Source: an uncultured Pseudomonadota bacterium
GTDB lineage: Bacteria > Pseudomonadota > Alphaproteobacteria > RF32 > CAG-239
Direction: 5' to 3'
Length of the DNA: 64,000 nucleotides
Assembly: GCA_902788365.1 (NCBI GenBank)
Contig: CADAJN010000003.1
Coordinates: 58,656-122,655 of the forward strand
The translations under genes were made by a program, and so were the position numbers. The notes beneath the pieces are model-generated. The model ran no database searches, had not been told where the DNA came from, and worked only from the letters and a program-made list of their open reading frames with translations. Shown here in pieces: positions 18,198 to 60,553 of the stretch; the stretch's first letter is position 1; each line of letters opens with the position of its first letter.

Positions 18198-21100
18198 TTA
18201 TGCTTCCGGCTCATCACCAGCGGCAGCCAAAGCCTTCTGCTCTTGCGCTTGTTGCTTCATCTCCATGATTTCTTTATCATTTTGAGCAGCCACACGACGC
18301 AAAGCACGCAAAACGTTACCTGTTCCGGCCGGAATCAGACGACCAACAATCACGTTTTCTTTAAGACCGCGCAAATCGTCAACTTTACCTTCAACCGCCG
18401 CTTCAGTCAACACGCGAGTTGTTTCTTGGAACGATGCGGCTGAAATGAACGACTTGGTCTGCAAGCTGGCCTTTGTAATACCCAGCAGAACCGGATCGGC
18501 TGTTGCAGTTTGTCCGCCTTCTTTGAACGTTTTTTCGTTTTCAGCTTCAAAGACATCGCGGTCAACCTGTTCGCCCACCAAGAATGTCGTATCGCCGGCC
18601 GAAGTAATTTCAACCTTTTTCAGCATTTGCGAAACCACAACTTCAATGTGCTTATCGTTGATGTTCACACCTTGCAGGCGATACACGGCTTGCACTTCTT
18701 GCACTAAGTATTCGGCCAATTTTTCCACGCCTAACACGCGCAAAATATCATGCGGTGCCGGTGTGCCGTCAACCAGCAAATCACCCTTTTTAACTTGGTC
18801 GCCGTCTTGAACCACCAAGCGACGTCCCTTCGGAATAAGGTATTCCACCGGATTGCCTTCGGCCGGAATAACCGTAATACGTTGTTTTGCCTTATAGTCT
18901 TTGCCGAATTCCACCATACCGTCAATATCGGCAATAATTGCCGGATCTTTCGGACGACGGGCTTCAAACAGCTCGGCCACACGCGGCAAACCACCGGTAA
19001 TATCTTTTGTTTTGGTGCTTTCCACCGGAATACGAGCAATAATATCACCGACTTTGATTTCATCACCGTTATCAACGTTCAACACTGCGTCCGGAGACAG
19101 ATAATAACGAACTTCCTTATCCGTGCCGTCATAGGTGACCGGCTTACCTTTAGCGTCTTTCAGCGTAATGCTCGGCTTCAAGCTGGCATTTGCCGTCGGA
19201 CCGGATTGCCAGTCAATCACCGTCTTTGAGCTGATACCGGTTGTTTCATCAATTGATTCTTTAACCGAAACGTTTTGAATGAGATCAATCAGTTGAGCCT
19301 TACCGGCTTTTTCCGAAATCACCGGATTCATGAACGGGTCCCACTCGGCAATCTTCTGTCCTTTGGTCACTTCCGCGCCTTCGTTAACCAAAACTTTGGC
19401 GCCATACGGCACATGGTGACGCGACTTTTCACGCCCTTGGTTGTCGGCAATCACAATATCGCAGTTACGCGATAAAATAATCAAATGACCATCCGAATTG
19501 GTAACTGTATGACCGTTCTCTAACTTCAAAATACCGGCAAACGGCACTTCAATGTTTGATTGTTCGGCCGATTTAGAAGCCGCACCACCGATGTGGAAGG
19601 TTCTAAGTGTTAACTGTGTGCCCGGTTCACCAATGGATTGAGCCGCAATCACGCCCACAGCTTCACCGATGCTGACCGGTGTTCCTCTGGCCAAGTCACG
19701 ACCGTAACAAGCGGCGCAAACACCGTGTTCGCTTTCGCAAGTCAATACCGAACGAATTTTAACCTGTTCAACACCGGCTTTTTCAACCACTGCCACATCG
19801 TCTTCGTCAATCAATTTACCTTTATGAACAAGAACTTCGCCGGTTTCCGGATTCAAAATATCTTCTTGTGCCGTGCGGCCTAAAATACGCTCGCCGATAG
19901 AGGCAATAACGTTACCGCCGTCAACTACCGGACGCACGATAATACCACGTTCAGTGCCACAATCGGTTTCGTTAATCACCACATCTTGTCCCACGTCAAC
20001 CAAACGACGTGTTAAGTAACCGGCGTTTGCCGTTTTCAAAGCCGTATCGGCCAAACCTTTACGCGCACCGTGGGTTGAGTTAAAGTATTCCGACACTGTC
20101 AAACCTTCTTTAAAGTTTGAAATAATCGGTTGCTCAATAATTTCGCCCGACGGCTTAGCCATCAAGCCGCGCATACCGGCCAACTGACGCATTTGTGCCG
20201 CACTACCGCGGGCGCCCGAGTCAGCCATCATAAATACCGAGTTATAAACACCGTGATCCGGCTTAGAAATGTTTTTCATCATCTCATCGGCAACTTTATC
20301 GGTGCAAGATGCCCAAATATCAACCACTTTGTTGTATTTTTCGCCCTTGGTAATCAAACCATTTTGATATTGCTGTTCAAATTCCTTCACTTGCGCTGAA
20401 GTTTCATCAATCAACTTTTGTTTTGCAGCCGGCACAATCAAATCATCTTTACCAAACGAAATGCCCGACAAACATGCATATTTATAACCGAGGCTCATAA
20501 TGCGATCGGCCATGATACAAGTTTCTTTACCGCCGCAAACACGATAAACTTCATCAATAATTTGCGAAATTTGCTTTTTCTTCACCAAACGGTTCACAAG
20601 TGCAAACGGCACGCCTTCGTGCTTCGGCAAAACTTCGGAAACAATCAAACGACCCGGTGTGGTGTCCACAATGCCTTTGGTCCATTTGCCGTCTTCACCC
20701 ACATATTCCATACGGCATTTAATGCGTGCATGCAAATCAACCGCTTTGGCGTTCAAAGCCAGCATACATTCTTCCGGATTGGCATAAATACTGCCCTCAC
20801 CGGTCATGTCTTCCGCATCATAGGTTAAGTAATAAATACCGAGCACCATATCTTGCGACGGCACAATAATCGGCTTACCCGAAGCCGGCGATAACACGTT
20901 GTTTGATGACATCATCAAAATACGTGCTTCCAATTGTGCTTCAATAGAAAGCGGCACGTGAACAGCCATTTGGTCACCGTCAAAGTCGGCGTTGAAAGCC
21001 GTGCAGGCCAACGGGTGCAAGTGAATGGCTTTACCTTCTACCAACACCGGCTCATAGGCTTGAATACCCAAGCGGTGCAACGTCGGAGCACGGTTCAAAA

Positions 21101-22373
21101 GCACCGGATGTTCTCTGATGACTTCTTCCAAAATATCCCAAACTTCCGGACGCTCTTTTTCCACCATGCGCTTGGCTTGTTTAATGGTTGTTGCCATACC
21201 ATACATTTCCAGTTTGGCATAAACAAATGGCTTAAACAATTCCAGCGCCATTTTCTTCGGCAAACCGCATTGTTGCATTTTCAGTTCCGGACCAACCGTA
21301 ATCACCGAACGGCCGGAATAGTCCACACGTTTACCAAGTAAGTTTTGACGGAAACGACCTTGCTTACCTTTTAACATATCGGCCAAAGACTTAAGCGGGC
21401 GCTTATTCGTGCCTGTAATAGCTCTGCCGCGACGACCGTTATCAAACAATGCATCAACCGATTCTTGCAACATACGTTTTTCGTTGCGGATAATGATATC
21501 CGGCGCATGCAATTCCAACAGTCTCTTTAAACGGTTGTTACGGTTAATCACACGACGATATAAATCGTTCAAATCAGATGTGGCAAAACGACCACCGTCT
21601 AACGGTACTAACGGACGCAAATCAGGCGGAATAACCGGTAAAACCGTCAAAATCATCCATTCCGGCTTAGCCTGAGATGAAATAAACGCTTCTACCAATT
21701 TCAAACGTTTCACTAACTTTTTGCGCTTAGCTTCCGAAGTTGTTTCTTTAAGTTCGGCACGCATTGTCTTAGCTTCTGCTTCCAAATCAATGCCGGCCAA
21801 AATTTCGCGTAAAGCCTCAGCTCCGATGCCGGCTCTGAATGAATCTTCGCCGTATTTATCAATGGCATCTTGATATTCGTCTTCGCTCAAAAGCTGATTG
21901 ATTTGCAAATCGGTCAAACCCGGTTCAATCACAATATAGCTTTCAAAATACAGCACGCGTTCCAAAGCCTTTTCCTGAATATCGGTCAGCGTTGCAATAC
22001 GTGACGGCAATGATTTCAAAAACCAAATATGTGCCACCGGTGCAGCCAATTCAATGTGCCCCATGCGTTCACGACGCACTTTGGAAAGTGTTACTTCCAC
22101 ACCGCACTTTTCGCAGACAATACCGCGATATTTCATACGTTTATATTTACCGCACAAGCATTCATAGTCTTTAATCGGGCCAAAAATACGTGCACAGAAC
22201 AAACCGTCTTTTTCCGGCTTAAACGTGCGATAGTTAATGGTTTCAGGCTTTTTCACTTCACCATACGACCACGAACGAATTTGTTCAGGAGACGCAATGG
22301 AAATTTTGAGTGCATCAAAATTATCCGCAGCGACTTGTTGCTGATCAAACATATTCATTATTTCATTATTCAT
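18198..22373 (-). CDS. rpoC: DNA-directed RNA polymerase subunit beta'
   Basis: 1391 aa. [12 protein letters not shown] catalytic motif and zinc-finger cysteines. Unambiguous. Confidence 0.97.
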
Positions 22374-22391: not shown

Positions 22392-25300
22392 TTATTCTTC
22401 GCCCAACATTTCAACGTTCAAGCACAAAGACTTAATTTCTTTAACCAAAACGTTGAATGATTCCGGAATACCGGTATCAAAGCTGTCTTCACCGCGAACA
22501 ATCGCTTCATAAACCTTGGTTCTGCCGGCGACGTCATCGGACTTAATCGTCAACATTTCTTGCAATGTATAAGCCGCGCCGTAAGCTTGCAATGCCCACA
22601 CTTCCATTTCACCGAAGCGTTGACCGCCGAATTGTGCCTTACCGCCTAACGGTTGTTGTGTTACCAAACCGTAAGGACCAACCGAACGAGCGTGCATCTT
22701 TTCATCAACAATGTGGTGCAGCTTGATCATATACATCACGCCCACTGTCACTTTGCGGTCAAACTTCTCTCCGGTTCTGCCGTCATACAAATCAATCTGA
22801 CCCGATGTCGGTAAACCTGCCAACGAGAGCATATTGTTAATATCATCACCCGAAGCACCATCAAATACCGGCGTTGCCATCGGCACACCGTTTTTCAGGT
22901 TAGAAATCATTTCCATCTTTTCATCTTCGTTCAATGTTTCTACCTGATTTTTGTATTGTTTGGCACCGTAAATTTCTTTCAGGCGCTTATTGAGTTCGGC
23001 TGCAGTTTTTTCACCGCGTTTATATTGCTCGCACATTTCATTGAGTTGTGCACCCAATTCTTTAGCGGCCCAACCGAGGTGTGTTTCCAAAATTTGTCCC
23101 ACGTTCATACGAGAAGGCACACCGAGCGGGTTTAACACCACATCAACCGGCGTTCCGTCTTCCATATATGGCATATCGGCCAACGGTAACACGCGTGAAA
23201 CCGTACCCTTGTTACCATGACGACCGGCCATCTTATCGCCGGTTTGCATTTTACGTTTGGTTGCAATAAATACCTTCACCAATTTCAAAACACCCGGCAA
23301 TAAATCATCGCCGCGTTGAACCTTTTCAACTTTGTCAGCATAGTGCTTTTGAATGTTTTCCATACGTGCATCAAATGCGGCATTAAGTTCTTCAATTTGC
23401 GACATCACATCGTCTTTTTTAACCACGATTTTACGCCATTGTGATGACGGCACACCGGCCAAAGCCTCAGCCGTAATTTTGCTGTTCTTCGCAATGCCTT
23501 TCGGCGCATCAACCACGGTCTGACCAATCAACATATTCTGCAAACGAGCTTCATAGCTGCCGCGAATAATGGCAATTTCATCATCACGGTCTTTTGCCAA
23601 AGTTGAGATTTCTTCTTGTTCAATGGCTAATGCACGCTCATCTTTTTCTACACCGCGACGAGAGAAAATACGCACATCAACCACAATACCGTCAATACCC
23701 GGCTGAGCGCGTAACGATGTATCACGCACATCGCTGGCTTTCTCGCCGAAAATGGCACGCAGCAATTTTTCTTCCGGTGTCACCGGTGATTCGCCTTTCG
23801 GCGTCACCTTACCAACCAGAATGTCGCCCGCTTTCACATGGGCACCCACATAAACAATACCGGCTTCATCCAAGTTGCGCAAAGCATCTTCACCAACGTT
23901 CGGAATATCGCGCGTAATTTCTTCTTGACCAAGCTTGGTATCGCGCGCCATCACTTCAAATTCTTCAATATGCAATGATGTCAACACATCTTCACGCGAA
24001 ATACGTTCCGAAAGCAAAATAGCATCTTCGTAGTTCAAACCGTTCCACGGCATAAATGCCACGAGTAAGTTTTTACCCAAAGCCAATTCGCCCAAGTTTG
24101 TGCACGGACCGTCGGCAATAATATCGCCCTTTTTAATATGGTCCCCCACTTTAACGAGCGGCACTTGGTTAATGCACGTATTTTGGTTAGAACGGCGGAA
24201 TTTAGAAAGTTTGTAAATTTCAACACCAACATCATGCGCCGTGCTGTCATCCGAACGAATAACGATTCGGTTAGCATCAACCGCGTTCACCACACCATCA
24301 TACTTAGCCACCAATGTTGCGCCGGAATCTTTAGCCACCGTTGCTTCAATACCGGTACCGACCAGCGGAGCTTCAGAACGCAACAACGGCACACCTTGGC
24401 GTTGCATGTTTGACCCCATCAACGCGCGGTTTGCGTCATCGTTTTCCAAAAACGGAATCAAAGCAGCCGCCACCGAAACCAACTGTTTCGGCGAAACGTC
24501 AATGTAGTTAATGTCTTCAGGTTTGTCAAATTCCACTTCGCCACCACGACGGCAGGTAATCAAATCATTTTCAAAATGACCTTTTTCATCAACCTTGGCG
24601 TTTGCTTCGGCAATAACCACTTTACCTTCGTCATCAGCCGTCAAATATTTTACTTCATCGGTTACAACACCATTAACAACCTTACGATACGGGCATTCAA
24701 TAAAGCCATATTTATTTACGCGCGCATACGTAGAAAGTGAGTTAATCAAACCAATGTTCGGACCTTCCGGCGATTCAATCGGGCAGATACGACCATAGTG
24801 CGTCGGGTGCACGTCGCGCACCTCAAAGCCGGCTCTGTCACGGCTCAAACCACCCGGACCTAATGCCGACAAACGACGCTTGTGCGTAATTTCTGACAAC
24901 GGGTTGTTCTGGTCCATAAATTGTGACAACTGTGAAGAACCGAAGAACTCACGAATAACCGAAGCAATCGGTTTAGCGTTTACCAAATCTTGTGGCTTCA
25001 CATTGTTCAAAATTTCGGCACTCATTTTTTCTCTGATGGCGCGTTCCATTCTGAGCAAGCCCATACGATATTGGTTTTCCATCAATTCGCCGACCGAACG
25101 CACACGACGGTTGCCAAGGTGGTCAATATCGTCCACCATACCTTTACCGTCACGAATGTTAATCAATTTCTTGATAATTCTTAAGATATCGTCTTTGCGT
25201 AAAACGCGCATGGTATCCGGCGCCTCTTCAAATGATATGTCTAAAGACGCATTCATCTTCACACGACCGACAGCCGATAAATCGTAGCGTTCCGAATCAA

Positions 25301-26555
25301 AGAACAATTGCTTAAACAAAGCATCAGCCGCTTCTAACGTAGCCGGTTCGCCCGGTCTCATTACACGATAAATATCAAACAGTGCTTCTTGGCGATTGCT
25401 GTTTTTGTCGGCAGCCAAAGTGTTGCGCATATACGGACCGACATTCAAGCCGTCAATATATAACGTTTCAACGGTTTTAATTTTATTTTCGGCCAATTTA
25501 TCAAGCAACTCTTCATTGATTTCGTCACCGGCTTCGGCAATCACTTCTCCTGTTTTGGCAATAACAATATTTTTCGCCAAGAATTTGCCATACATTTGGT
25601 CTTTGGATACCACAAAATATTCCAAACCCTCATCAGCCAGTTTTTGCGCGCTTCTCGGTGTTAATTTTTTGCCGGCATCCCAAACCGTTTCGCCGGTTTT
25701 GGCATTAACCAAAGCAAAGTCAAACTTTACGCCGCGCATACGGCTCGGTTCAAACTTCATCTTCCAAGCTTTTTTGTCTGCCAAATAAATTTCGGTATCA
25801 TAGAAGTAATTAAGAATTTCTTCTTTGCTCATACCTTCAATTTCTTCCGGCGGTAAATCCGGATTTTTTGCCAATTTTTCTTCTGTTTCTTTAGAAGGCA
25901 ACGAATATAAAATAGATGTTACCGGCAATTTGCGACGACGGTCAATGCGCGCATACAACAAATCTTTGGCATCAAATTCAAAATCAAGCCACGAACCGCG
26001 ATACGGAATAACGCGTGCCGAAAACAGCTTTTTACCCGAAGAAACGGTTTTGCCGCCATCGCTGTCATAAAATACGCCCGGCGAACGATGCATTTGCGAA
26101 ACCACCACGCGCTCCGTGCCGTTGAAAATAAATGTGCCTTTTTCCGTCATAAGCGGAATGTCACCCATATATACATCTTGTTCTTTAATGTCATGAATAG
26201 ATTTGGCTCCGGTCGTTTCATCGGTATCAAAAACCACCAAACGCAAAGTCGCACGAATAGGCGCGGCATAGGTCATATCGCGTCTGATGCACTCTTCTTC
26301 ATCATATTTCGGGGTTTCCAACACATATTTTACAAATTCCAGCTCACCGTTATCCGAAAAGTCTTTAATCGGAAAAATGGAGCGGAAAACTTCTTCCAAA
26401 CCAAATTCACAATGCTCACCATAAGCATCTATGTTATTGATAAATCCGGAATAAGAACCTGTTTGAATATCAATTAAATTCGGCATATCCATCACGGCCT
26501 CGATTCGGCCGAAATTTTTCCTTACACGTTTTTTGCTCGTATAAGTCTCTTTCAT
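22392..26555 (-). CDS. rpoB: DNA-directed RNA polymerase subunit beta
   Basis: About 1387 aa with canonical RpoB motifs. Start placed at [15 protein letters not shown], which has an AAGGA RBS. Confidence 0.97.
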
Positions 26556-26810
26556 TGATTTTTTCCTTCTAAAACATTGATTCTGCGACAATTCTTATGA
26601 AATAAACTCAATCCCGTCAACAGAAGGTTAAACAACACTTTTTTTGTTATATGAATCGGCCACACCATCGGTAATTACGCCATCTCAGCCAGATTCGTGA
26701 AATAATTTTTTATTGTGGAATTTTATACCCACTTTAAACTGCGCGGAGTATAATTCTTTTTTGCTTGTTTTGCAACTGTTTTTTAAGTTATATGAATTTA
26801 GGTTTTATTT

Positions 26811-27150
26811 AAAAAAACTCGGATAGCGTGCGTTATGACGACGTGCAGATAGAAATTCGGCCGAGATACCACGGTCAGAGCCGTGGTATGACAATCAATT
26901 ATAAAAACTCGGATAGCGTGTGTTATGACACAGTGAATTTTAAGCGACGTGTACAAAAGAGGTACACGAGCGAAAAATTTACAAGTCAGAACCAGCTAAA
27001 CGAGTTTTACACGAGTTTAGAAACTCGGATGATGAGCTTAATACGCCGTTGTTTTAGAGCCTTCGGCGCTGCTTACGCAGTGGACGACGTGTAGAAAACT
27101 GCTACACGAGGAGAAAAACAACAAGTAGTAAGCCATTAGACGAGTTTCTT
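26811..27150. repeat. Cluster B of palindromic extragenic elements (3 units, one partial) between the ettA stop and the rpoB start
   Basis: Same termini and central hairpin family (GTGTACAAAAGAGGTACAC / GTGTAGAAAACTGCTACAC). The right terminus contains the ettA stop codon. Confidence 0.8.
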
Positions 27151-28812
27151 ATACCGGATGCGGTGCGGATTACACGCATCCTCTCCCAAACGGGCTTTTT
27201 TGTCTTTTTCATAGTCCTCAAAATTGCCCTCAAACCACTCCACATGCCCGTCATCTTCATAGGCCAAAATATGGGTTGCCAAACGGTCTAAAAACCAGCG
27301 GTCGTGTGAGGTCACCAAAACACAGCCTGGATAGTTGTTAATGCCTTCTTCCAAAGAACGCAGCGTATCAACATCCAAATCATTGGTCGGTTCGTCCAAA
27401 AGAATAACATTAGCGCCCTTTCTGAGCATTTTTGCCAAATGCACGCGATTACGCTCACCACCCGAAAGCTGCCCGACTTTCTTTTGCTGATCGGCACCTT
27501 TAAAATTGAACTGACCGACATAAGCGCGCGACGAAACTTCATTTTTACCGAGTTGAATCATATCCATGCCGTCGGAAATTTCCTCCCACACATTTTTATC
27601 CGGATTCAATTCATCACGCGACTGATCTACATAGCCTAAATCTACCGTCTCGCCGATTCGGATAGTGCCGGAATCCGGCTTTTCCTGACCGGTAATCATG
27701 CGAAATAATGTGGTTTTACCGGCGCCGTTCGGACCGATAATACCGACAATGGCACCTTTTGGAATTTTGAACGACAAATCATCAATAAGCACGCGATCAC
27801 CGAATGCTTTGCTGATGTGTTCGGCTTCAATAACCAAATCACCCAAACGCTCGGTCATCGGAATATTGATATGTGCGGTTGAAATTTTTTCACGCGTTGC
27901 TTGCGACAACAACTCATCATACGCGTTAATACGTGCCTTAGATTTTGCCTGACGCGCTTTCGGATTCTTTCTGATCCACTCCAACTCATTGGCAAGCGTG
28001 CGCTGACGGGCGTTTTCTTCACGCGCTTCTTGTTCCAAGCGCTTAGATTTCTGCTCTAACCATGATGTGTAATTGCCCTCATACGGAATCCCCTGCCCGC
28101 GGTCAAGCTCCAAAATCCAGCCGGTTACATTATCCAAGAAATAGCGGTCGTGCGTAACCATTACCACCGTGCCCTTATAATCGCGCAAGTGGTGTTCCAG
28201 CCACGCCACCGATTCGGCATCTAAGTGGTTGGTCGGCTCATCTAAAAGCAACATGTCCGGTTGTTGTAATAACAAACGACACAATGCCACGCGGCGTTTT
28301 TCTCCGCCGGAAAGTTTGGTTACATCAGCATCGGCCGGCGGACAACGCAAAGCATCAAGCGCAATTTGAATTGTGCGTTCCAAATCCCAACCGTTACAAG
28401 CGTCAATTTTTTCCTGCAATTCAGCTTGCTCGGCAATCAAATCATTCATTTCATCGTCGCTCATCGGCTCGGCAAATTTGGCTGAAACTTCCTCAAAACG
28501 CTGCAAAAGAGCCTGCGTTTCGCTCAAACCGGACATCACATTTTCCATCACGTTTTTGGAAGGATCCAGCTTTGGTTCCTGTTCCAGATAGCCGACTTTT
28601 ACTCCTTCGGCCGCCCAGGCCTCGCCGTTAAATTCCTTGTCAACCCCGGCCATAATTTTCAAAAGCGTTGATTTTCCGGCACCATTCACACCCAAAACGC
28701 CGATTTTTGCTCCCGGTAAAAATGACAATGTGATATCCTTAAAAAGCTCGCGCCCACCCGGCAAAACTTTAGTCAAGTTCTGCATCACAAAAACATATTG
28801 ATAAGCTGGCAT
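27136..28812 (-). CDS. ettA: ABC-F ATPase EttA (energy-dependent translational throttle)
   Basis: 558 aa. Two ABC domains with Walker A motifs GVNGAGKST and GPNGAGKTT. EttA-like N-terminus. Confidence 0.9.
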
Positions 28813-30219: not shown

Positions 30220-30296
30220 GCGCTCTTAGCTCAGCAGGATAGAGCAACAGCCTTCTAAGCTGTGGGTCGGGCGTTCGAATCGCCCAGAGCGCGCCA
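30220..30296 (+). tRNA. tRNA-Arg (anticodon TCT)
   Basis: GCGCTCTTAGCTCAGCAGGATAGAGCAACAGCCTTCTAAGCTGTGGGTCGGGCGTTCGAATCGCCCAGAGCGCGCCA. Clean cloverleaf. Confidence 0.9.
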
Positions 30297-30336
30297 ATAT
30301 AAAAAAGCCACCCTTATGGTGGTTTTTTTATATTAA
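30281..30336 (+). repeat. tRNA-Arg 3' end plus terminator hairpin; direct repeat copy 1 (att-like)
   Basis: CGCCCAGAGCGCGCCAATATAAAAAAGCCACCCTTATGGTGGTTTTTTTATA; copy 2 at 30466-30521. Confidence 0.7.
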
Positions 30337-30465
30337 CGTAATCAGGCGGCAAAGAACGACCGACAGGCGTTCGGAGCTCAAAGAACGACCGACAGGCGTT
30401 CGGAGCTGAGGTGATGCCGCGCTCTTGTGCGGCTATCGCCGTAAGCCGTTGCGTAGCAACACTTC

Positions 30466-30521
30466 GCCCAGAGCGCGCCAATATAAAAAAACCACCCTTA
30501 TGGTGGTTTTTTTATACCCTT
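30466..30521 (+). repeat. Direct repeat copy 2 of the tRNA-Arg 3' end (17 nt) plus terminator
   Basis: Near-identical to 30281-30336. The intervening 170 bp holds a tandem 29-bp repeat (CAAAGAACGACCGACAGGCGTTCGGAGCT, 2 copies). Confidence 0.7.
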
Positions 30522-33232: not shown

Positions 33233-33467
33233 TTTTTTCTCCATGGTTTTCGGATAACCATAATCTGTTGTCAGTATAACGATTTTCTGTAGCGAATCAA
33301 GCTCAAACGCAAGATTATCCCTATTGACAAGATTCGTTTTATAAATCAGATACGGCATTATCGGACTTGCGCCCGAAGATTGTTACGTCGTGCTAATCTA
33401 TTCTTATAAAAGAAGAAGCGGTAGATGCCTTGACCGCGCAAAGCGCGGAGGCATGACTTGTTATTTA

Positions 33468-33665
33468 AAAACCTCGGATAATGAGCTTAATACGAAGAAA
33501 GTTTTCTCACGCGGTGTAGATAATACTACATAAGTGAAGAGGCATACAAGTAGACACCAGCTAGACGAGGTTAAAACCTCGGATAGCGTGCGTGATTACG
33601 CCGTAATTTTTAGACGCCGCGTAGATAATGCTACGCAAGGAAAAAAATTACAAGTAAGCACCAGC
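33468..33665. repeat. Cluster C of palindromic extragenic elements (2 units; unit 2 overlaps the kdsB 3' end)
   Basis: AAAACCTCGGATAATGAGC...CAAGTAGACACCAGCTAGACGAGGTT, then AAAACCTCGGATAGCGTGCG...ACAAGTAAGCACCAGC. Confidence 0.8.
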
Positions 33666-34437
33666 TTTTGATGTATGGCAGGGAATTGGCCAAATCCTCT
33701 TCCGTGTTAATGTCTGCCGGAGCTTCTTTAACCAGCTTAATATTATCAACCAACATTGCACGCACTTCCATGCCGTTTTCCAAAGCACGCAACTGCTCTA
33801 AAGCCTCACGCTTTTCCAAAACACCGGTCGGCAGTGAAACCATTTTTTGTAACGACGCCGCTTTAAACACATAAATACCGATGTGATAATATAAATCCTG
33901 ATTCGGGCATTTTTCCGGATTACGCGTATATGGTGCCGTAGCGCGAGTAAAATACAAACAGCGCGCTTCTTTTTCGCCCTCTTTCAAACCCATAATGATT
34001 TTGACCACATTCGGGTTGTTTTTATCTTCTTCCGAAGTAATCAGCATACCGCAAGTGGCAATATCGCAACCGGTGCGCTCTACCATTTCAATCAGAGGCA
34101 GCGTTACTTTCGGGTCCACATTGATGTTGTCGCCCTGAAAATCAACAACAATATCATATTTTGTGCCTTCCGGATCCAAAATTTTAAGCGCCGCGGCAAT
34201 ACGGTCGGTGCCGCTCGGCAGATTCGGATCAGTTAAAATCGCCGTAGCGCCGAATTTTTTACATTCATCAACAATGGCCTGATCGCCGGCTGCAATCGCA
34301 ATATCGGTATTTAACGCAGCCTTTACGTTTTCATATACGCGTTGCACCATGGTTTTGCCGTTTATCACGCGCAGTGGTTTATTCGGCAAACGTGTAGCGG
34401 CTAAACGCACCGGCATTAAAGTAATAACTCTGCTCAT
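33631..34437 (-). CDS. kdsB: 3-deoxy-manno-octulosonate cytidylyltransferase
   Basis: PVRLAATRLPNKPL N-terminus and overall KdsB similarity. The last 11 codons (SWCLLVIFFLA) and the stop are encoded by repeat unit C2. Confidence 0.85.
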   Translation of the reverse strand: MSRVITLMPVRLAATRLPNKPLRVINGKTMVQRVYENVKAALNTDIAIAAGDQAIVDECKKFGATAILTDPNLPSGTDRIAAALKILDPEGTKYDIVVDFQGDNINVDPKVTLPLIEMVERTGCDIATCGMLITSEEDKNNPNVVKIIMGLKEGEKEARCLYFTRATAPYTRNPEKCPNQDLYYHIGIYVFKAASLQKMVSLPTGVLEKREALEQLRALENGMEVRAMLVDNIKLVKEAPADINTEEDLANSLPYIKSWCLLVIFFLA

Positions 34438-42899: not shown

Positions 42900-43015
42900 A
42901 ATTGTAAAATTAAAAAGTAAGTAAATTATAATGAAATCGAATTTAGTATAGACAAAAAACAGAGAAATGTCAAGATGAAAGTTACTTCATATGGTGAGTA
43001 TAATCACTGCATTAT

Positions 43016-43124
43016 AAGAACTCGGATAGCATGCGTAGATACGCCGTATCCCTCTTCACGCCGTGTACAAAAAAAGGTACATAAGTGAAGAGGGATACAA
43101 GTAGATACCAGCTAGACGAGGTTT
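43016..43124. repeat. Palindromic extragenic element D (single unit) abutting the ppiase stop codon
   Basis: AACTCGGATAGC...GTATCCCTCTTCAC/GTGAAGAGGGATAC perfect arms...CAAGTAGATACCAGCTAGACGAGGTTTT. Confidence 0.85.
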
Positions 43125-43736
43125 TTAGATATCGGCAATGACTTCTATTGAAATAATCCGATCCGGCGACGACACCATCCCGTTTGAACCGCTGCCGCGC
43201 TTAATCAAATCCACAAATTCCATGCCCTCAATAACTTGTCCCCAAATAGTATATTGACCGTCAAGCCAAGGACAATCGCCAAAGCAAATAAAAAATTGGC
43301 TGTCGGCAGAATCCGGATCCATTGCCCGTGCCATAGATACTGTGCCACGCTTGTGCTGCAAACGATTAAACTCAGCTTTGAGTTTTTTACCGCTACCGCC
43401 AGTGCCGTCACCGCGCGGACAACCGGTTTGTGCCATAAAACCGTCAATTACGCGATGAAACTTCAAACCGTTATAAAAACCTTGCCGAACCAGCTCTTTA
43501 ATACGCGCCACATGCTTTGGTGCCACATCCGGCAACAATTCAATAATCACATCGCCGTCTTTAGTTTTCAGCAGCAGAGCATTTTCAGCATCTTTCACCG
43601 CGTATGAATGTTTAATTTTCTTGGCACGGCTCTGGCTCATGCCTATTTTTTTGGTTTCCTTATTTTCAAGTTTTTGTGTGCTCGGTTTTGAAATATTTTT
43701 AGTTTCGGATTTTTGCAATAAATCAGTCATTTTCAA
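43125..43736 (-). CDS. Cyclophilin-type peptidyl-prolyl cis-trans isomerase with a Lys-rich N-terminal extension
   Basis: FHRVIDGFMAQTGCPRGDGTGGSG cyclophilin signature. Confidence 0.85.
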   Translation of the reverse strand: MKMTDLLQKSETKNISKPSTQKLENKETKKIGMSQSRAKKIKHSYAVKDAENALLLKTKDGDVIIELLPDVAPKHVARIKELVRQGFYNGLKFHRVIDGFMAQTGCPRGDGTGGSGKKLKAEFNRLQHKRGTVSMARAMDPDSADSQFFICFGDCPWLDGQYTIWGQVIEGMEFVDLIKRGSGSNGMVSSPDRIISIEVIADI

Positions 43737-48088: not shown

Positions 48089-48190
48089 ATCCTTTCGTTT
48101 TTATGCTTACGGATATGATATATATAACCGAAAAAACAAAATAAAAGGGGCAGAAAAAAGGATATATTTTTCCAACACCTGTTCAGGCCT

Positions 48191-48294
48191 AAACCTCGGC
48201 TAGCGTGCGTGATTACGCAGTGAATTTGGAGCGTGGTGTAGATAAAGCTACACGAGCGAGAAATTTACAAGTCAGAACCAGCTAGACGAGGTTT
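48191..48294. repeat. Palindromic extragenic element E (single unit) abutting the gcrA stop codon
   Basis: AAACCTCGGCTAGCGTG...GTGTAGATAAAGCTACAC...ACAAGTCAGAACCAGCTAGACGAGGTTTT. Confidence 0.85.
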
Positions 48295-48726
48295 TTATTT
48301 GCGAGTGGCTTTGACATAGGCCATCATCGCATGCTCATCACAATATGTTTGACCGGAACGCACTTTCTTGCCGCAAAAAGAAAAGTCATCATCACGCGGA
48401 TCACCAAGCGGCCATCTGCAAGTATGGCTATCTAAATCAACCAAACGAACCTTATCGGTGGCATCTGATGTAACGGATGCCGCAGCACTTTTAGCCGGTT
48501 TAATTTCACGCACCGGTAACAATTCTTGAACCGGCGCGGCTTCTTTTTCTGTCTCAATTTCTTCTTTCTTTTTAATCGGCGACGGACGTGCCGTCAAACA
48601 CAGACGGTGCACTTTTCCGACAATAGAATTTTTAGACACGCCCAATTTTTTTGCAATTTCGTTGGCTGTTAAGCCCTCTATCCACATTTGGCGTAAATCT
48701 TCCACCATTTTTTCGGTCCAAGCCAT
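48295..48726 (-). CDS. gcrA: Cell-cycle regulator GcrA
   Basis: MAWTEKMVEDLRQMWIEGLTANEIAKKLGVSKNSIVGKVHRL N-terminal domain, and conserved C-terminal HTCRWPLGDP...FCG. Confidence 0.9.
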   Translation of the reverse strand: MAWTEKMVEDLRQMWIEGLTANEIAKKLGVSKNSIVGKVHRLCLTARPSPIKKKEEIETEKEAAPVQELLPVREIKPAKSAAASVTSDATDKVRLVDLDSHTCRWPLGDPRDDDFSFCGKKVRSGQTYCDEHAMMAYVKATRK

Positions 48727-54374: not shown

Positions 54375-56800
54375 TGCACCATCTGTTTTCTAAAATCTTT
54401 GCACTGTTTTTAACTGTTGCCGTTTTGTTTAGCAGTTCAACGGTTTTTGCGGCCGATGCAACCAAAGCCGCACCGCAGCCGACACCGGCTAAAACAAGTA
54501 TTTTGCCGCAATCGGCAGATTTTAATACCGTAACCACGCAAATTGAAAAAATCCGCAAAAGCCTGGCAAAACCGTCTGTTTCTAAGGAAAAAATTGAGGA
54601 ATACACTTCTTATCTGACCCGCACCGAAGCCGCTATTATGGAAAATCGGCGTGAAATGGAAAAGCAGGTGAAATCTCTGCAAAAACAAATTGACGCCCTA
54701 GGTGAAGGCGGCGAAACGGAAGACGCTTTTATCACTAAGCAACGTGATGAATTGATGCAAAAGTTAGCAACGCAAGACCGCATACTTAAAGAAGCTGATT
54801 TGATGATTGTGCAAATAGAAGACTTAACCGTGCACATTTTAAATGTCCGTAATCAGAAAATATACGGAGAATTGATTACCAAACATTCGGCATTTATAAA
54901 CCCGTTGGTCTTTTTTAACGGTATTAAAGCTTATGTCGTTTATTTTTGGGATGTTACCAAATCGCCGGTTGAGTGGTATCAGAATTTGCCACAAGAGCAG
55001 CGTTCCTATGCACTTTTCAGCATTGTTGTAATGTTTATCATTTTAATGCTAGCGGTTGGACTGGCCGTATTTTTGCGCCGCCTGATTTTGCGCAACTGGG
55101 GCTATAAAGAAGATATTGCCGAACCGAGCTTTAACCGCAAAGTTGTTGCCGCCATTGCCGTGGCCGTGGCACGCGGTTTGATTTCCATGTTCTTGGTCGG
55201 CGGCTGTATTTTGTGGATGGTCAGCACCAAAATTTTTGAAAACAGCCTTTTGGAAAAAATTCTGATGACCACTGCATATATCACCATGTTGGCCATTGTA
55301 GAAACCACAGTTTCGCGAGTGACTTTTGCTCCGCATTATCCGCAATGGCGCTTAGTTAATATTGCCAGTGAAAAAGCCGCTCGCTTTACACGCATGATTT
55401 TCACCTTCATTTTACTCAATGCCATGGCAACAATTCAACTTCTTGTGGCACAATACGCCGAATATCCGATAGACGCTATTCATTTTGCCATGATTATTGC
55501 TTGCGCCGTCAAAGCCTTTTTCCTCATGTGGTTTACTAAAGTGGCATTTGATACATATAAATCGGAAACTTCCGAAGAAGCCGGTGAAATTGAAGAAAAT
55601 GAAGACCATGGCTTTAAAATGATTATTTTCAGCCACATCTTTTGCTTTGGCACACTTTTGCTGTCATTGCTCGGTTATCCGGAATTGTCATTGTTCATCT
55701 TTAACCATATCATCTTATCATTGATTTTGTGCGGTTTATTTGAAGTTTTACGTCGTTCCTTCATTGATATTTTGCGCAAGCTCATACTTTCCGGCCCTTG
55801 GGCTAAGGGCTTTCATCACTATAAAAAAACGGCCGAAAAGGTTGATTTTTGGTTACGTGCCATTATCAATCCGGCCATGGCTCTGGCTTTGATTTTTGTA
55901 TTATTGACATTCTGGGGGTTGCCGGGAGATTTGATGCTGGCTGCCCTCAAAAAATTGTTGTTTGGGTTTAAAATCGGCGGCATTCAAATTTCATTGCTTG
56001 CCATTATGCTCGGCATCGGTGTCTTTTTCGGCTCGCTTGCCTTAATGCGCATCATCAAAAACAAACTGGCCACCAATGTTTTGGCTAAAATAGATATGGA
56101 TGACGGCATTCGCCATTCGCTGATTTCGGGTTTCAGCTTTATCGGCTTTATTATGGCGGCGCTTTTGGCAATTATTGCCGTCGGCATAGATTTAACTAAC
56201 CTTGCTTTCATCGCCGGTGCTTTATCGGTCGGTATCGGTTTCGGCCTGCAAGATGTAATTAAAAACTTAGTTGCCGGTATCATTATTTTATTTGAACGCC
56301 CGTTCCGTGTCGGCGACTGGGTGGTTTTAGGCGGCGTTGAAGGAAAAATTCAGCAAATAAACATTCGCTCTACCGAACTGTTGAGCTTTGATAAAACCAG
56401 CGTAATTATTCCGAATGCTACGCTGATTTCTTCAACCGTAACCAATAAAACACATGATGACAATATGTCGCGACAAAATGTTACGGTTGGCGTGGCTTAC
56501 GGCTCGGACGTAGAAAAAGTCAGCAAAATTTTATTGGAATGCGCCGCTGAGCATAAATTGGTGATGAAAAATCCGGCGCCGTATGTGTTGTTTAAGGATT
56601 TCGGTGCCAGCAGCCTGGATTTTGAATTACGTTTTTATGTAAAAGACATTAACTCCGGTTGGACGGCGCCGAGCGATTTGCGCTATATGATAAATAAGCG
56701 CTTTATTGAGGAAGGTATTGAAATTCCGTTCCCGCAAGTGGTGGTTCACAACGGCGACGCCAATACGGAAAAAACAATACCTATTGAGGGAAATATATAA
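54374..56800 (+). CDS. Mechanosensitive channel, MscK/KefA-like (MscS family) with a periplasmic N-terminal coiled-coil domain
   Basis: 808 aa. MscS core FERPFRVGDWVVLGGVEGKIQQINIRSTEL. Confidence 0.85.
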   Translation: MHHLFSKIFALFLTVAVLFSSSTVFAADATKAAPQPTPAKTSILPQSADFNTVTTQIEKIRKSLAKPSVSKEKIEEYTSYLTRTEAAIMENRREMEKQVKSLQKQIDALGEGGETEDAFITKQRDELMQKLATQDRILKEADLMIVQIEDLTVHILNVRNQKIYGELITKHSAFINPLVFFNGIKAYVVYFWDVTKSPVEWYQNLPQEQRSYALFSIVVMFIILMLAVGLAVFLRRLILRNWGYKEDIAEPSFNRKVVAAIAVAVARGLISMFLVGGCILWMVSTKIFENSLLEKILMTTAYITMLAIVETTVSRVTFAPHYPQWRLVNIASEKAARFTRMIFTFILLNAMATIQLLVAQYAEYPIDAIHFAMIIACAVKAFFLMWFTKVAFDTYKSETSEEAGEIEENEDHGFKMIIFSHIFCFGTLLLSLLGYPELSLFIFNHIILSLILCGLFEVLRRSFIDILRKLILSGPWAKGFHHYKKTAEKVDFWLRAIINPAMALALIFVLLTFWGLPGDLMLAALKKLLFGFKIGGIQISLLAIMLGIGVFFGSLALMRIIKNKLATNVLAKIDMDDGIRHSLISGFSFIGFIMAALLAIIAVGIDLTNLAFIAGALSVGIGFGLQDVIKNLVAGIIILFERPFRVGDWVVLGGVEGKIQQINIRSTELLSFDKTSVIIPNATLISSTVTNKTHDDNMSRQNVTVGVAYGSDVEKVSKILLECAAEHKLVMKNPAPYVLFKDFGASSLDFELRFYVKDINSGWTAPSDLRYMINKRFIEEGIEIPFPQVVVHNGDANTEKTIPIEGNI

Positions 56801-56958
56801 AAAAACCGCCCCTTTCGGAGCGGATTTCTTATTGGTGCCGATTAGGAGATGGCGCTGCGCTTTCGCTTGCGGATCTTCTCTGCATTGCGACGCTTGCCGC
56901 AATGCTACTCGATTCCGACGCCCGTCGGGCATTCTTCTCCCCTTCCGATAATCAATAA
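56801..56958 (-). repeat. tRNA-Thr-linked 158-bp unit, copy 2: terminator, TTGGTGCCG, GC-rich structured body, CGATAATCAAT
   Basis: Near-identical tandem copy of 56959-57116. Each unit carries an approximately 17-nt copy of the tRNA-Thr 3' end. Confidence 0.75.
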
Positions 56959-57116
56959 AAAAACCGCCCCTTTCGGAGCGGATTTCTTATTGGTGCCGGT
57001 TAGGAGATGGCGCTGCGCTTTCGCTTGCGGATCTTCTCTGCATTGCGACGCTTGCCGCAATGCTACTCGATTCCGACGCCCGTCGGGCGTTCTTCTCCCC
57101 TTCCGATAACCAATAA
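56959..57116 (-). repeat. tRNA-Thr-linked 158-bp unit, copy 1
   Basis: AAAAAAACCGCCCCTTTCGGAGCGGATTTCTTATTGGTGCCGGTTAGGAGATGGCGCTGCGCTTTCGCTTGCGG...internal hairpin GCATTGCG/CGCAATGC. Confidence 0.75.
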
Positions 57117-57148
57117 AAAAACCGCCCCTTTCAGAGCGGAGTTTTTAT

Positions 57149-57224
<76 letters not shown>

Positions 57225-57395
57225 ATAGCAAAAACATACATAACCCACTTTTTCATATTTTGCAAGCAAAAAAATACCCGCGTTTCACAAAAAATTTTGC
57301 TCTTTTAACATTTTTGCCAAAAAAACTTGACTTCATTTCCAAAAAAATGTATTCTTAATCCAATCATTTATTACTTACATATAACTTTCAATATT

Positions 57396-57671
57396 ATGAA
57401 CAAGATTTCTATTAAAGACGTTAGAAGTGCGATTGTGTATGTGTGCCAAAATGATGGGCTTCATCTGCAGGACATCAGCGATGAGAAGCTCGCTCGGCTG
57501 GACCTTGTTAAGGACTTGAACATCGGCAATGTTCGACTTGTTAACGTGGCAACCGAACTGCAACGCACCCACAATTTCAACCTGCCGTGGGAGGTGCTCC
57601 GCACCCGCGAGGACAACACCGTCGGCACATTCTTGAAGGTCATCAATCAGTATTTATCATCTGAATGCTGA
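57396..57671 (+). CDS. Hypothetical small protein (91 aa), GC-richer than its surroundings
   Basis: Start MNKISIKD. Followed by a hairpin terminator at 57697-57730. Confidence 0.4.
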   Translation: MNKISIKDVRSAIVYVCQNDGLHLQDISDEKLARLDLVKDLNIGNVRLVNVATELQRTHNFNLPWEVLRTREDNTVGTFLKVINQYLSSEC

Positions 57672-57797
57672 TAGTATGATTACAGTTTTTAACCTCTTAC
57701 ACAAAAGACCGCTCCTTTGTGACCGGTCTTTTAACTTTTTAAACCTTTTTCTTTTTAACTTACCCAAGTAAATTGACGCATATTTCCCTATCATTGC

Positions 57798-58319
57798 TTA
57801 TTTGTAACGCCCCCGATTTTGATAAATTTGCACAAAAGTCCAACCGGTTAAAACTACGCAAGCGACAGCCGACGGATATGCCTGCACATAAAAATTATGA
57901 ATAAACCATAAAAGCAGATTAGAAACCAAAGCCCAACGCATTTGTTGTTCGTTTTTTGTTGTATACATAAAAATAGTATAACTGGCAGAGGCAATAATGG
58001 GAAATAGGCCGATAATACCGAGATTATTAACATAAAGCCCGATAGCCACGTTTATAATTAGCAGAATATAGGTGATATTTTTAGTTAGTTTGCCTTTATA
58101 AGATAAAATATTACGAATAAGGCAAAACACACTGATGACCAGCGCCGCATATGCCGAAAGCGCAATGCAAGCTGCAATTCCGAAAAGCGGATCGCCGATT
58201 TGCCAATACATAAAATCTTTTTTGTTTTTCTTAATAACCGACACAGCAATACAAATTGCCGACAATAGAGAAAATATATTTCCGATAATTAGGTATGCCG
58301 GCATTGTTTCAAATCTCAT
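57798..58319 (-). CDS. Small polytopic inner-membrane protein (YgjV-like, tentative). Paralogue of 59640-60140
   Basis: About 5 TM segments. Shares a QQMR-containing segment with the paralogue. Confidence 0.45.
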   Translation of the reverse strand: MRFETMPAYLIIGNIFSLLSAICIAVSVIKKNKKDFMYWQIGDPLFGIAACIALSAYAALVISVFCLIRNILSYKGKLTKNITYILLIINVAIGLYVNNLGIIGLFPIIASASYTIFMYTTKNEQQMRWALVSNLLLWFIHNFYVQAYPSAVACVVLTGWTFVQIYQNRGRYK

Positions 58320-58635
58320 TTATATCAAGCAAAGGAATTATATTTACAACAGGTTCCTCATACGGGTGAATTTCTTTTATGGCTGAAATTGTTTTGTTTA
58401 AATTTTCTTTTAAGCAGATAACTTCTACTTTCATTTCCGGCTCTTGACTTATTTTATCGTGTTTGCCTAAATACGGTTTTGCCGCATCTAACGGACGCCA
58501 AGTTCCTGTAACTTCGCTATATGATAAACAAGAATCATAATTTCCTATGTGTCCGGCATCAACTTTTTGCAAAGTTGTTTGTAGTTGTTTCAAATGCGTT
58601 TTCGGAATAAAAATTTCTAATTTATATTTTTCCAT
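58309..58635 (-). CDS. Small conserved hypothetical protein (possible Nif3/YqfO insert-domain-like)
   Basis: VDAGHIGNYDSCLSYSEVTGTWRPL...IKEIHPYEEPVVNIIPL resembles the stand-alone metal-binding domain. Tentative. Confidence 0.35.
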   Translation of the reverse strand: MEKYKLEIFIPKTHLKQLQTTLQKVDAGHIGNYDSCLSYSEVTGTWRPLDAAKPYLGKHDKISQEPEMKVEVICLKENLNKTISAIKEIHPYEEPVVNIIPLLDINEI

Positions 58636-58826
58636 ATTTTGTTCCTTTTCTATGTTAGAATAAACTAATACAGAAGAAAATCAATAGGTTTATTAAAAAA
58701 TTCGATAGTTGATGAGAAAGTGCTATTTTCAGAAAATAAACAATCGGACTGAAAATTATGAAAATTTTAAGAAATTAAGCTACAAATTAGAAGAAGTAAG
58801 TGAAATTATATACTTGAAAGAATAAC

Positions 58827-59591
58827 ATGGAAACGCAAATTAATATTTGTATTAAATTGAATCTTCCTGATATTCCTTATAAAAACAAATTAGCTTTTAT
58901 TTGTCATGGAATAACCGGATATAAAGAGCAGGATGTTATTTTACAAGTTGTTTCATCTCTAAAATCACAAGGATATACCATTATTAGTTTTGATTGTCGC
59001 AACTCCAGAGGTAAAAGTTTTAACAATCATCAATGTGCCACCATAACTGATTTTTGTGATGATTTAAAAACAGTAATAGATTGGGCAAAGAATCAAAGTT
59101 TTTATACAAATTCCTTTATATTAGCCGGTCATTCTTTAGGAGTAGCTACTATATTAGATTATGCCATTAAGAACTCTAACCAAATAAATGCTATTATCTC
59201 TATTGCAGGAGTTTTCAGCGGGCAGGATTTGTTAAATAATACCCAAGAATTTACTCCTGAATTCTTAAATTCCTTAAAAAGACATGGAATCACTCGTTGT
59301 AATGGAAAAGTTGAATGTTATTTGGATTTCAAATATTTAGAAGATGCTCAAAATTATGACTTTTACCAGGGTATAGAAAAATTTAATAAACCTATTCTTT
59401 TAATAACTGGTGACAAAGATATCGCATCAACACCTCAAAATAATCAAGATTTCTTTAATCAGATAAAAGGGAAGAAAGAACTGCATATATTAAAGAATTG
59501 CTCTCATATATATGAAACAAAAGATAATCAAAACGACTTAGACAATATAATATCTAGTTTCATATCTACAATAAGGTCAGATAATTTATGA
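58827..59591 (+). CDS. Alpha/beta-fold hydrolase
   Basis: Nucleophile elbow GHSLG. FICHGITG oxyanion region. C-terminal His in NCSHIYE. Confidence 0.7.
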   Translation: METQINICIKLNLPDIPYKNKLAFICHGITGYKEQDVILQVVSSLKSQGYTIISFDCRNSRGKSFNNHQCATITDFCDDLKTVIDWAKNQSFYTNSFILAGHSLGVATILDYAIKNSNQINAIISIAGVFSGQDLLNNTQEFTPEFLNSLKRHGITRCNGKVECYLDFKYLEDAQNYDFYQGIEKFNKPILLITGDKDIASTPQNNQDFFNQIKGKKELHILKNCSHIYETKDNQNDLDNIISSFISTIRSDNL

Positions 59592-59639
59592 ATTTCTTAA
59601 TTATTATTTTTTATAATTTCTGCATTTAGGAGAAATTAT

Positions 59640-60140
59640 ATGATTTGGCTCGGATATTTTTTTACTATTCTTAATTACGCCTGCTATTGCTTAAGTCGTT
59701 TTATGAAACACAAAAAAATGATGCTGTTGCTGGATTTATTAGCAAAAGTTTTTACGGCACTTGGACTATATTTTTTAGATTCATTAAGCGGTGCATATAT
59801 TTTTATGGCAGTATTCTTTATGTTGATAATTGCCAACATAAAAGAACGATTAAATAAAAGATGGCTTTTTGGATATATCTTTTTTCAGAGTTTATATCTT
59901 GCCATTTTGTTTTATACTTACGCCGGAATTTCATCAATTTTAGTTGTAACAACTGTATCAATCACGCTGTTTTGTATTTGGTGGCTACCTCCTCAACAAA
60001 TGCGTATTGTCGGCGGATTAAATTGCTTCACATATCTGGCTTATCAAATAAGTATAAAAAATTGGGCAGGATTGTTAGAGATTTTAGTGATTTTAAGTAA
60101 TCTGTTTTCATTTTTAAAATATAGAAAATCAAATAATTGA
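59640..60140 (+). CDS. Small polytopic inner-membrane protein, paralogue of 57798-58319
   Basis: 166 aa, about 5 TM segments. Confidence 0.45.
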   Translation: MIWLGYFFTILNYACYCLSRFMKHKKMMLLLDLLAKVFTALGLYFLDSLSGAYIFMAVFFMLIIANIKERLNKRWLFGYIFFQSLYLAILFYTYAGISSILVVTTVSITLFCIWWLPPQQMRIVGGLNCFTYLAYQISIKNWAGLLEILVILSNLFSFLKYRKSNN

Positions 60141-60553
60141 TGAAAAAATAAATAGTGTCATGCCTATTTTGCCAACAGGCAAAATTCAAGGCATCTTCAA
60201 ATTAAAAAAATTAGTGCTTCGCAAAGACCAGATTCCTTGATGACCTGACGCGCAGCGCAGGTCAAGGAATGACATAAAAAAATAAAAAGTCCGATAAATT
60301 TAGGAAAAAATGCAGTTTTGATGAACGACACAATCGGACTTGGTAAGAGCACGTTCCAACAAAAGCAAAAACCCGCCTCAAGGGCGGGTTTCTTGCATTG
60401 GTGCGCTTTTGCTATGCGACTATCGGACTGAAAATGCGCAAGAATATAGAGAACTGGGATATAAAATAGAGAAAGTATTGGAAAATATCTAAAAGCATAT
60501 TGAAAGAAAATTTGTAGTTTTGTATTCTGAACAAATGTTTTAGGAGATTAATT

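Follow-up and report, generated by a model that had tools for sequence, protein, structure and literature searches.

Palindromic repeats placed directly after stop codons in an uncultured gut alphaproteobacterium, and their probable accidental fusion to kdsB and ettA

We analysed a stretch of 64,000 nucleotides (hereafter the window) from an uncultured gut-type alphaproteobacterium and identified in it a family of repeats, imperfect palindromes of about 105 nt, located directly 3' of stop codons. In our judgement it is probable that small rearrangements at the gene/repeat junction, which can arise because the repeat abuts the stop, fuse open reading frames (ORFs) to the repeat, and that these fusions are incidental by-products of its location. 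Two conserved genes of the window, kdsB and ettA, end in such fusions. The repeat family appears to be undescribed; its effect on gene ends appears to be of a known kind.

A profile was built from the hand- and MAFFT-aligned units of the window and searched back over it, which resulted in exactly 11 units in five arrays, all on the minus strand. Each array starts 0-3 nt past a stop codon or overlaps it, the ORF in question being at least 143 aa long, and all share one orientation. The genes concerned, all on the minus strand, are rpoC, ettA, kdsB, a cyclophilin-type PPIase gene and gcrA. By a rough estimate, the chance of finding five out of five arrays at stops in one orientation is about 6e-7.

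Units occur singly or as head-to-tail arrays. The largest array (17767-18197, minus strand) starts directly after the rpoC stop TAA (18198-18200) and holds four units in the order A-B-A-B. It consists of a 215-nt block, with one unit each of subtypes A and B, that has been tandem-duplicated with 96 % identity, which shows that arrays grow by block duplication. The array after ettA (26810-27150, minus strand) has three units, namely e3 (27016-27150; profile E=2.2e-18), which contains an internal insert of about 24 nt, e2 (26900-27007) and the partial unit e1 (26810-26900). Two units follow kdsB (33465-33666, minus strand): k2 (33571-33666; profile E=6.7e-24) and k1 (33465-33572). The two remaining arrays are single minus-strand units at 43013-43126 and 48190-48296, which lie directly after, and overlap, the TAA of the PPIase gene (43125-43736) and of gcrA (48295-48726) respectively. 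As to gene order, ettA lies directly upstream of rpoB (22392-26591), which is followed by rpoC (18198-22373); the rpoBC pair is bracketed by repeat arrays, with three units upstream (window 26592-27135 region) and four downstream.

Read in the sense of the mRNA, a unit runs from the tip (A)AAACCTCGTCTAR through an outer arm and a variable middle stem to a conserved central hairpin (GTGTAS-loop-STACAC) and then through the complementary arms of the distal half to the last bases YTATCCGAG(G)TTT(T); the ends of the family can be written AAACCTCGTCTAR...YTATCCGAGGTTT. Hand and MAFFT alignment gives units of about 105 nt and moderate G+C, which fold into long imperfect hairpins with z-scores of -1.7 to -9. 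Covariation was assessed over 28 distinct units, taken from both the window and related contigs: 92 % of cells pair, with compensatory changes in 15 of 25 pairs, a result that in a palindromic element does not discriminate between RNA and DNA as the relevant form. These values were matched by none of 500 shuffles, and pairing in slid controls is 26-50 %. A strand test that set G-U against A-C combinations on the mRNA-sense strand gave 30:17, short of significance (p = 0.08). The terminal inverted repeats AAACCTCG...CGAGGTTT pair in 91 % of cells, the units are without coding capacity, and the distal end that follows the hairpin is U-rich (GAGGUUUUU). Comparison with Rfam returned only tRNAs for the window at gathering thresholds and no match at E<=1 for the rpoC array. 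A consensus scan, which cannot score hairpins of this length, called no canonical intrinsic terminator on the gene strand within the ettA and kdsB arrays or immediately beyond them.

The reading frames of the repeat differ in how they are closed. The TAR of the tip is invariant and lies in frame 1 in 18 of 18 units, where it stops translation after 2 codons; any frame-1 fusion will thus end in ...LV and stop. In frames 2 and 3 the positions of stops vary and some frames are open across the entire unit. The idea that the repeat carries a stop codon in all three frames was rejected, the invariant stop being confined to frame 1.

Two units, k1 (33465-33572; weak fold, z = -1.7) and a2 (17875-17973), are chimeric, with middle-stem halves that come from different subtypes and do not pair. 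They suggest recombination between units at the conserved central hairpin. The insert of e3 (window 27052-27078) is a G+C-rich sequence of about 24-26 nt, CACTGCGTAAGCAGCGCCGAAGGCTCTAA, that forms a side hairpin, and the sub-variant that carries it is also present in two related contigs (L093:1852-1986 and L115:4218-4356).

To extend the gene census beyond the window, metagenomic contigs were scanned with a pattern, yielding 26 loci of which 19 are true members and 7, lacking a profile match, were left out. The window, these 19 loci and the related loci L001, L008 and L013 together represent 15 distinct genes. For 13 of the 15, the stop of an ORF (131-1392 codons) is located either inside the tip or 0-13 nt ahead of it, and in each of these cases the same end of the repeat faces the gene, so the orientation is fixed. 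In L108 the stop is 29 nt away, and the arrays of L093 and L099 have no obvious ORF. Further ORFs end inside the tip in L107 (...GFKLV and stop) and L115 (...RKKLV and stop); judging by resemblance, the former is a putative RlmE and the latter a putative RecR. A 440-aa protein ends ...QKKLS and stop in L103 and ...QKKLG and stop in L117.

Solo tips (GAAACTCGACTAA / GAAACTCGTCTAA) are found between the stop region of a gene and a full unit in four loci (L101:3750-3790, L108:9181-9215, L117:611-640 and L118:2721-2750), and in L101, L117 and L118 the solo tip contains the end of a 131-codon ORF (...IEKLD and stop). Such tips may be what is left of lost units, or they may point to a target site that resembles the tip.

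The kdsB ORF (33631-34437, minus strand) encodes 268 aa, the first 257 of them native and the last eleven (residues 258-268, SWCLLVIFFLA) encoded by the repeat. Its C-terminus reads ...LPYIK, then SWCLLVIFFLA and stop, an end that is written ...SLPYIKSWCLLVIFFLA or ...EEDLANSLPYIKSWCLLVIFFLA, each followed by the stop. An earlier note on this DNA had described the ORF as entering this unit, which it called C2, with this very tail, and both the sequence and the translation are right (profile match 33571-33666). The overlap exists, but its length with the stop counted is 36 nt (33631-33666, minus strand; 11 codons plus TAG, all inside k2), one more than the 35 nt that the note gave. The TAG sits in the 5' arm of the central hairpin of k2 (GCGUAG/CUACGC). 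NCBIfam models for KdsB (CMP-Kdo synthetase) match the ORF only to residue ~251.

The note was also correct that repeat sequence provides the end and the stop of KdsB, and likewise the stop of EttA. The KdsB extension is specific to the lineage. The tail, which is hydrophobic, is absent in all 120 best orthologues (73-96 % identity, at most 96 % query coverage), and the full-length proteins among these 120 measure 257-260 aa and have their C-terminus at ...IK or no more than one residue from it. In the nearest KdsB cluster, which has 477 members, the listed full-length members are all 257 aa (40 read, 15 listed). The exact 268-aa product has no record among about 15 billion proteins. The predicted 11-residue tail is unique to the window sequence; it is read in frame 2, and a near-identical frame-2 peptide, SSSWCLLVNFSLV and stop, can be read from unit L107c.

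Loci from related lineages reveal how the kdsB gene end is normally arranged. A tblastn search within 10 kb of ettA loci found kdsB in L001-L006 only, and the other kdsB loci were taken individually. Every orthologue has a native stop at the position of the junction, and this stop is missing in the window. The closest kdsB relative retrieved, L119 (97 % amino-acid and 91.7 % nucleotide identity), is identical to the window in the last 30 nt of the gene and then reads ATCAAA TAA followed directly by AAAACCTCGTCTAATGG. The corresponding junction is AAA TAG and AAACTCGTCTAGC in L001-L006 and L098, TAA and AACTCGTTTAGCTGG in L120, and TAA plus 7 nt, then the repeat, in L121. An intact kdsB stop followed by the repeat is therefore found in four related lineages (L001/L098, L119, L120 and L121). 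In the window, ATCAAA is joined to AGCTGGTG (the unit continues AGCTGGTGCTTAC), and both the stop and the initial ~11 nt of the tip are missing. The profile match of k2 accordingly stops at model position 99 of 111: the gene-proximal tip AAACCTCGTCT, about 11 nt, is lacking and its distal partner CCGAGGTTT is kept. With the stop and the tip gone, translation runs on for 11 codons to the TAG in the central hairpin.

No repeat follows kdsB in four other lineages (L088-L091), where AAA TAA or AAA TAG leads into ordinary 3' flanks, some with a hairpin and a T-run. Where units do follow kdsB (L001, L119, L120, L121 and the window), they belong to different subtypes. We had considered that this reflects a very fast turnover of units between relatives of 96-97 % amino-acid identity; that view was softened, as nucleotide identities of 78-92 % correspond to separate species-level lineages.

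The change at ettA is smaller. The ORF (27136-28812, minus strand) encodes 558 aa and ends ...RIRYKKLV and stop where orthologues have YKKLER and stop; EttA models match it end to end, to position 552 of 552. The best 120 orthologues are 559-563 aa long, most of them 559, and most end ...YKKLER, an ending that is found also where no repeat follows ettA. In the window the 3' end of the gene overlaps the tip of unit e3 (27136-27150, minus strand; AAG AAA CTC GTC TAA), which agrees with the final 12-15 nt of ettA; AAACTCGTCTAATGG is the tip sequence of other copies. The earlier note had attributed the last three codons and the stop (KLV and stop) to the element. Because orthologues without the repeat already end ...KKLER, the K and the L are native and only the V and the stop are new; some of the residues attributed to the element are thus present in EttA proteins from loci that lack it. 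Compared to its orthologues, the EttA of the window has exchanged ER and stop for V and stop and is one residue shorter.

The junction can be placed by comparison with relatives. In L007, a 93 %-identical relative, ettA ends TAT AAG AAA CTG GAA CGC TGA, and no repeat is found in the 68 nt up to the end of the contig. The repeat is also absent after ettA in L008-L012 and L014, which have ordinary 3' flanks, and L013 reads CGC TAG followed by AAAAACCTCG, which corresponds to a repeat following an intact stop. The window reads TAT AAG AAA CTC GTC TAA TGG, with GTC TAA in place of GAA CGC TGA. The native gene end and the tip have 8 nt (AAGAAACT) in common, in which the junction is located; the bases derived from the repeat are the final C of CTC, then GTC and TAA. 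Elsewhere, the tip sequence is AAGAAACTCGTCTAR in L115, and the window copy at 43013 has TATAAGAACTCGG at its other end.

We propose that a deletion of 13-15 nt at the gene/repeat junction, following the insertion of the repeat, would account for the end of kdsB. This is the simplest reading, and we infer the order of insertion and then deletion indirectly because the closest relative has only ~92 % nucleotide identity in kdsB. At ettA, a microhomology-mediated deletion or insertion may have removed GAA CGC TGA. Both fusions are probably junction accidents, neutral or mildly harmful, rather than selected captures. The observation that the same tip ends unrelated ORFs in related contigs fits a by-product of the location of the repeat.

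The earlier note had proposed instead that essential genes captured the element in frame, as described for Rickettsia palindromic elements (RPEs), the best-known repeats inside ORFs (PMC10969869). On this explanation a mobile palindromic element inserts in frame into essential genes and its own reading frame is retained as protein. RPEs lie within ORFs in frame, are flanked on either side by coding sequence of the host, and specify a conserved peptide (PMC10969869). The resemblance is real: both families are palindromic repeats in alphaproteobacteria, of ~100-150 nt for the class and ~105 nt here, both are partly translated, and the kdsB and ettA ORFs do contain in-frame codons derived from the repeat. 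The comparison fails in the arrangement. Nothing host-coding follows the repeat, and the native C-terminus is either complete up to the junction (KdsB ...PYIK) or shortened (EttA, 558 vs 559 aa). Relatives carry the repeat outside the ORF, past an intact stop. None of the 11 window units lies inside a gene, all being extragenic or overlapping the extreme 3' end only. A position outside genes is the default for this family, and translation is confined to junction accidents. Nor is there a conserved encoded peptide, as frame 1 closes after 2 codons in all 18 units and frames 2 and 3 stop at variable positions. We also found no sign of selection for capture. Capture of the RPE kind is accordingly hard to credit for either gene.

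Two other explanations concern kdsB. A unit already lacking its tip may have inserted directly into the kdsB stop, or the first unit may have been replaced by recombination with another array. The different subtypes after kdsB (L001, L119, L120, L121 and the window) would be compatible with independent insertions, the chimeric units k1 and a2 demonstrate that recombination between units occurs, and the presence of the repeat does not track kdsB identity, since L001 (82 % nucleotide identity) has it and L088 (likewise 82 %) does not. However, k2 keeps CCGAGGTTT, the partner of the missing tip, as would be expected of a full unit that lost one end later, and every other gene-adjacent copy retains its tip. 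We consider this course of events unlikely. The second explanation is that assembly or sequencing went wrong at the junction, in a stretch rich in repeats, and that the real gene ends ...IK and stop. Repeats are classic sites of misassembly, the tail is found in no homologue, and the 268-aa product is without a protein record; the last point says little, because the closest kdsB lineage retrieved is at ~92 % nucleotide identity. A clean loss of 13-15 nt with collinear flanks is untypical of the collapse of a 105-nt repeat, and fusions of a like kind are present in the independent assemblies L107 and L115, which makes an artefact very unlikely. Loss of the stop and the tip from a full unit lying after kdsB remains our preferred reading.

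Among published phenomena, the nearest match comes from enterobacteria, in which ERIC/RU repeats have become fused to gene 3' ends. RU-1/ERIC is fused to the 3' end of ECA3499 (an amidase), where the stop is lost and an extension of ~35 aa results, and an RU-2 overlap of 16 nt adds 4 aa to the ABC ATPase ECA4072 (Delihas 2007, PMC2759123); such gene-end fusions have been summarised by Delihas 2011 (PMC3184786). What the window shares with those cases is an intergenic palindromic repeat that reaches into a conserved gene at its 3' end, the loss of the regular stop, and an extension by between a few and ~35 lineage-specific residues that closes at a stop inside the repeat: KdsB gains 11 aa absent from 120 orthologues, and EttA has V and stop for ER and stop. 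One published case, with its 16-nt overlap, also involves an ABC ATPase. The repeat of the window belongs to a different family from a different host clade, shows no evident relationship to theirs in sequence, and is tied to stops far more tightly and directionally than has been described for ERIC.

Other known families share single features with the repeat. REPs are G+C-rich imperfect palindromes of 21-65 nt (PMC3184786); according to Liang, Rudd and Deutscher (2015), as cited in PMC12306157, many E. coli REPs start within 15 nt of a stop, and those less than 16 nt from it lower translation of the upstream gene. REPs and BIMEs are palindromes that lie outside genes at their 3' ends, run in the direction of the transcript and often form mosaic arrays; likewise, the five arrays of the window comprise 1-4 units of mixed subtypes, all directly 3' of genes. 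In size and composition they differ, the window units being hairpins of ~105 nt with moderate G+C in head-to-tail arrays. REPINs consist of two inverted REPs that form a hairpin of ~100 nt and are mobilised by RAYT (PMC3116915, PMC3337134). The window family resembles them in size, in its long imperfect hairpin, whose two inverted arms show compensatory changes, and in its confinement to one clade. None of the 18 window ORFs scanned against Pfam matched a transposase family, and a DNA-level search for pairs of repeat tips (below) identified no RAYT gene.

Terminator-like MITEs of the SPRITE (S. pneumoniae) type and Correia elements are similar in having terminal inverted repeats without coding capacity, in co-transcription with neighbouring genes, presumed for the window family, and in a hairpin followed by a U-rich stretch, here GAGGUUUUU. 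In contrast to them, the copies compared here show no consistent target-site duplication. A TA duplication is possible at 43013-43126 and 48190-48296 and is not seen in L001/L098 or in L095-type copies; as a general rule it was dropped, because it fits these two single-unit copies only. A search of the window and related loci for proximal/distal tip pairs 0.4-4 kb apart found a single pair, 3.9 kb apart, in L099, and otherwise no IS-sized partner with the same ends.

Given the fixed orientation, the covariation and the U-rich distal end GAGGUUUUU, we infer that the repeat is co-transcribed with the upstream gene as a 3' hairpin. In this putative role, suggested by the sequence, it may act on the transcript as a 3'-UTR hairpin, that is as a terminator, a 3'-end stabiliser or a modulator of translation termination. 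A ribosome terminating at a stop that touches the repeat would have to open the outer helix, and the kdsB ribosome would melt both the outer and the middle stems of the first unit to reach its TAG.

It is conceivable, though we regard it as doubtful, that the family is a dedicated gene-end module whose insertion or retention is aimed just past the stop in one orientation, whose invariant TAR serves as a back-stop, and which acts as terminator, 3'-end stabiliser and termination modulator for housekeeping genes. The genes so served would be rpoC, ettA, kdsB, the PPIase gene and gcrA. Targeting could rely on a site that resembles the tip itself, such as AAGAAACT at the native end of ettA or the solo tips after stops in L101, L108, L117 and L118. 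If true, a small repeat directed to stop codons would represent a new targeting behaviour.

Whatever its role, a long-hairpin repeat that hugs stops in one orientation across genes and lineages is of greater interest than the two fusions. For annotation, conserved proteins of this clade whose C-termini differ by a few to about a dozen residues can owe this simply to junction accidents with the repeat, and such differences should not be taken as functional innovation or as RPE-like domain insertion. This uncultured gut alphaproteobacterial clade may also offer a natural test case for the influence of 3'-proximal hairpins on termination, mRNA stability and translation termination.

The window contains other repeats. 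Just distal to the kdsB array, a hairpin-containing sequence of 52 nt, GATGCCTTGACCGCGCAAAGCGCGGAGGCATG, is located at 33421-33472, and an inverted copy that is 79 % complementary to it is found 32 kb away at 1337-1388. It is possibly a second small repeat family or a type of terminator.

Several repeats adjoin tRNA genes. Three copies of ~155-177 nt, 63-84 % identical and unrelated to the stop-codon repeat, are located at 9069-9503 after tRNA-Pro (8936-9012). The 3' end of tRNA-Arg and its terminator hairpin are duplicated 184 nt downstream with 98 % identity (30280-30332 and 30464-30516), and a perfect tandem repeat of 29 nt x2 (30350-30407) lies between the two copies of this att-like duplication. 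A unit of 158 nt is repeated 2.3 times at 56797-57166 with 97 % identity, adjoining tRNA-Thr (57149-57224); each copy contains a hairpin and ~20 nt of the tRNA-Thr 3' end. Beyond these repeats (57300-64000), G+C drops to 30-34 %. Taken together, the tRNA-Thr repeats and the low G+C suggest att-like scars of an island integrated at the tRNA. Six ORFs of this region were scanned; no integrase was found among them, and the proteins recognised include two YgjV-like membrane proteins, an alpha/beta hydrolase and a weak HD-domain protein. The low-G+C region also holds blocks of 48-141 nt at 58703, 60293, 61663 and 62906 (and 60408/63192), spaced ~1.2-2.8 kb apart. Each of them ends in the hairpin AAAACCGCTCCTTTCGGAACGGTTTT, and they are possibly the repeated intergenic module of a gene cassette array.
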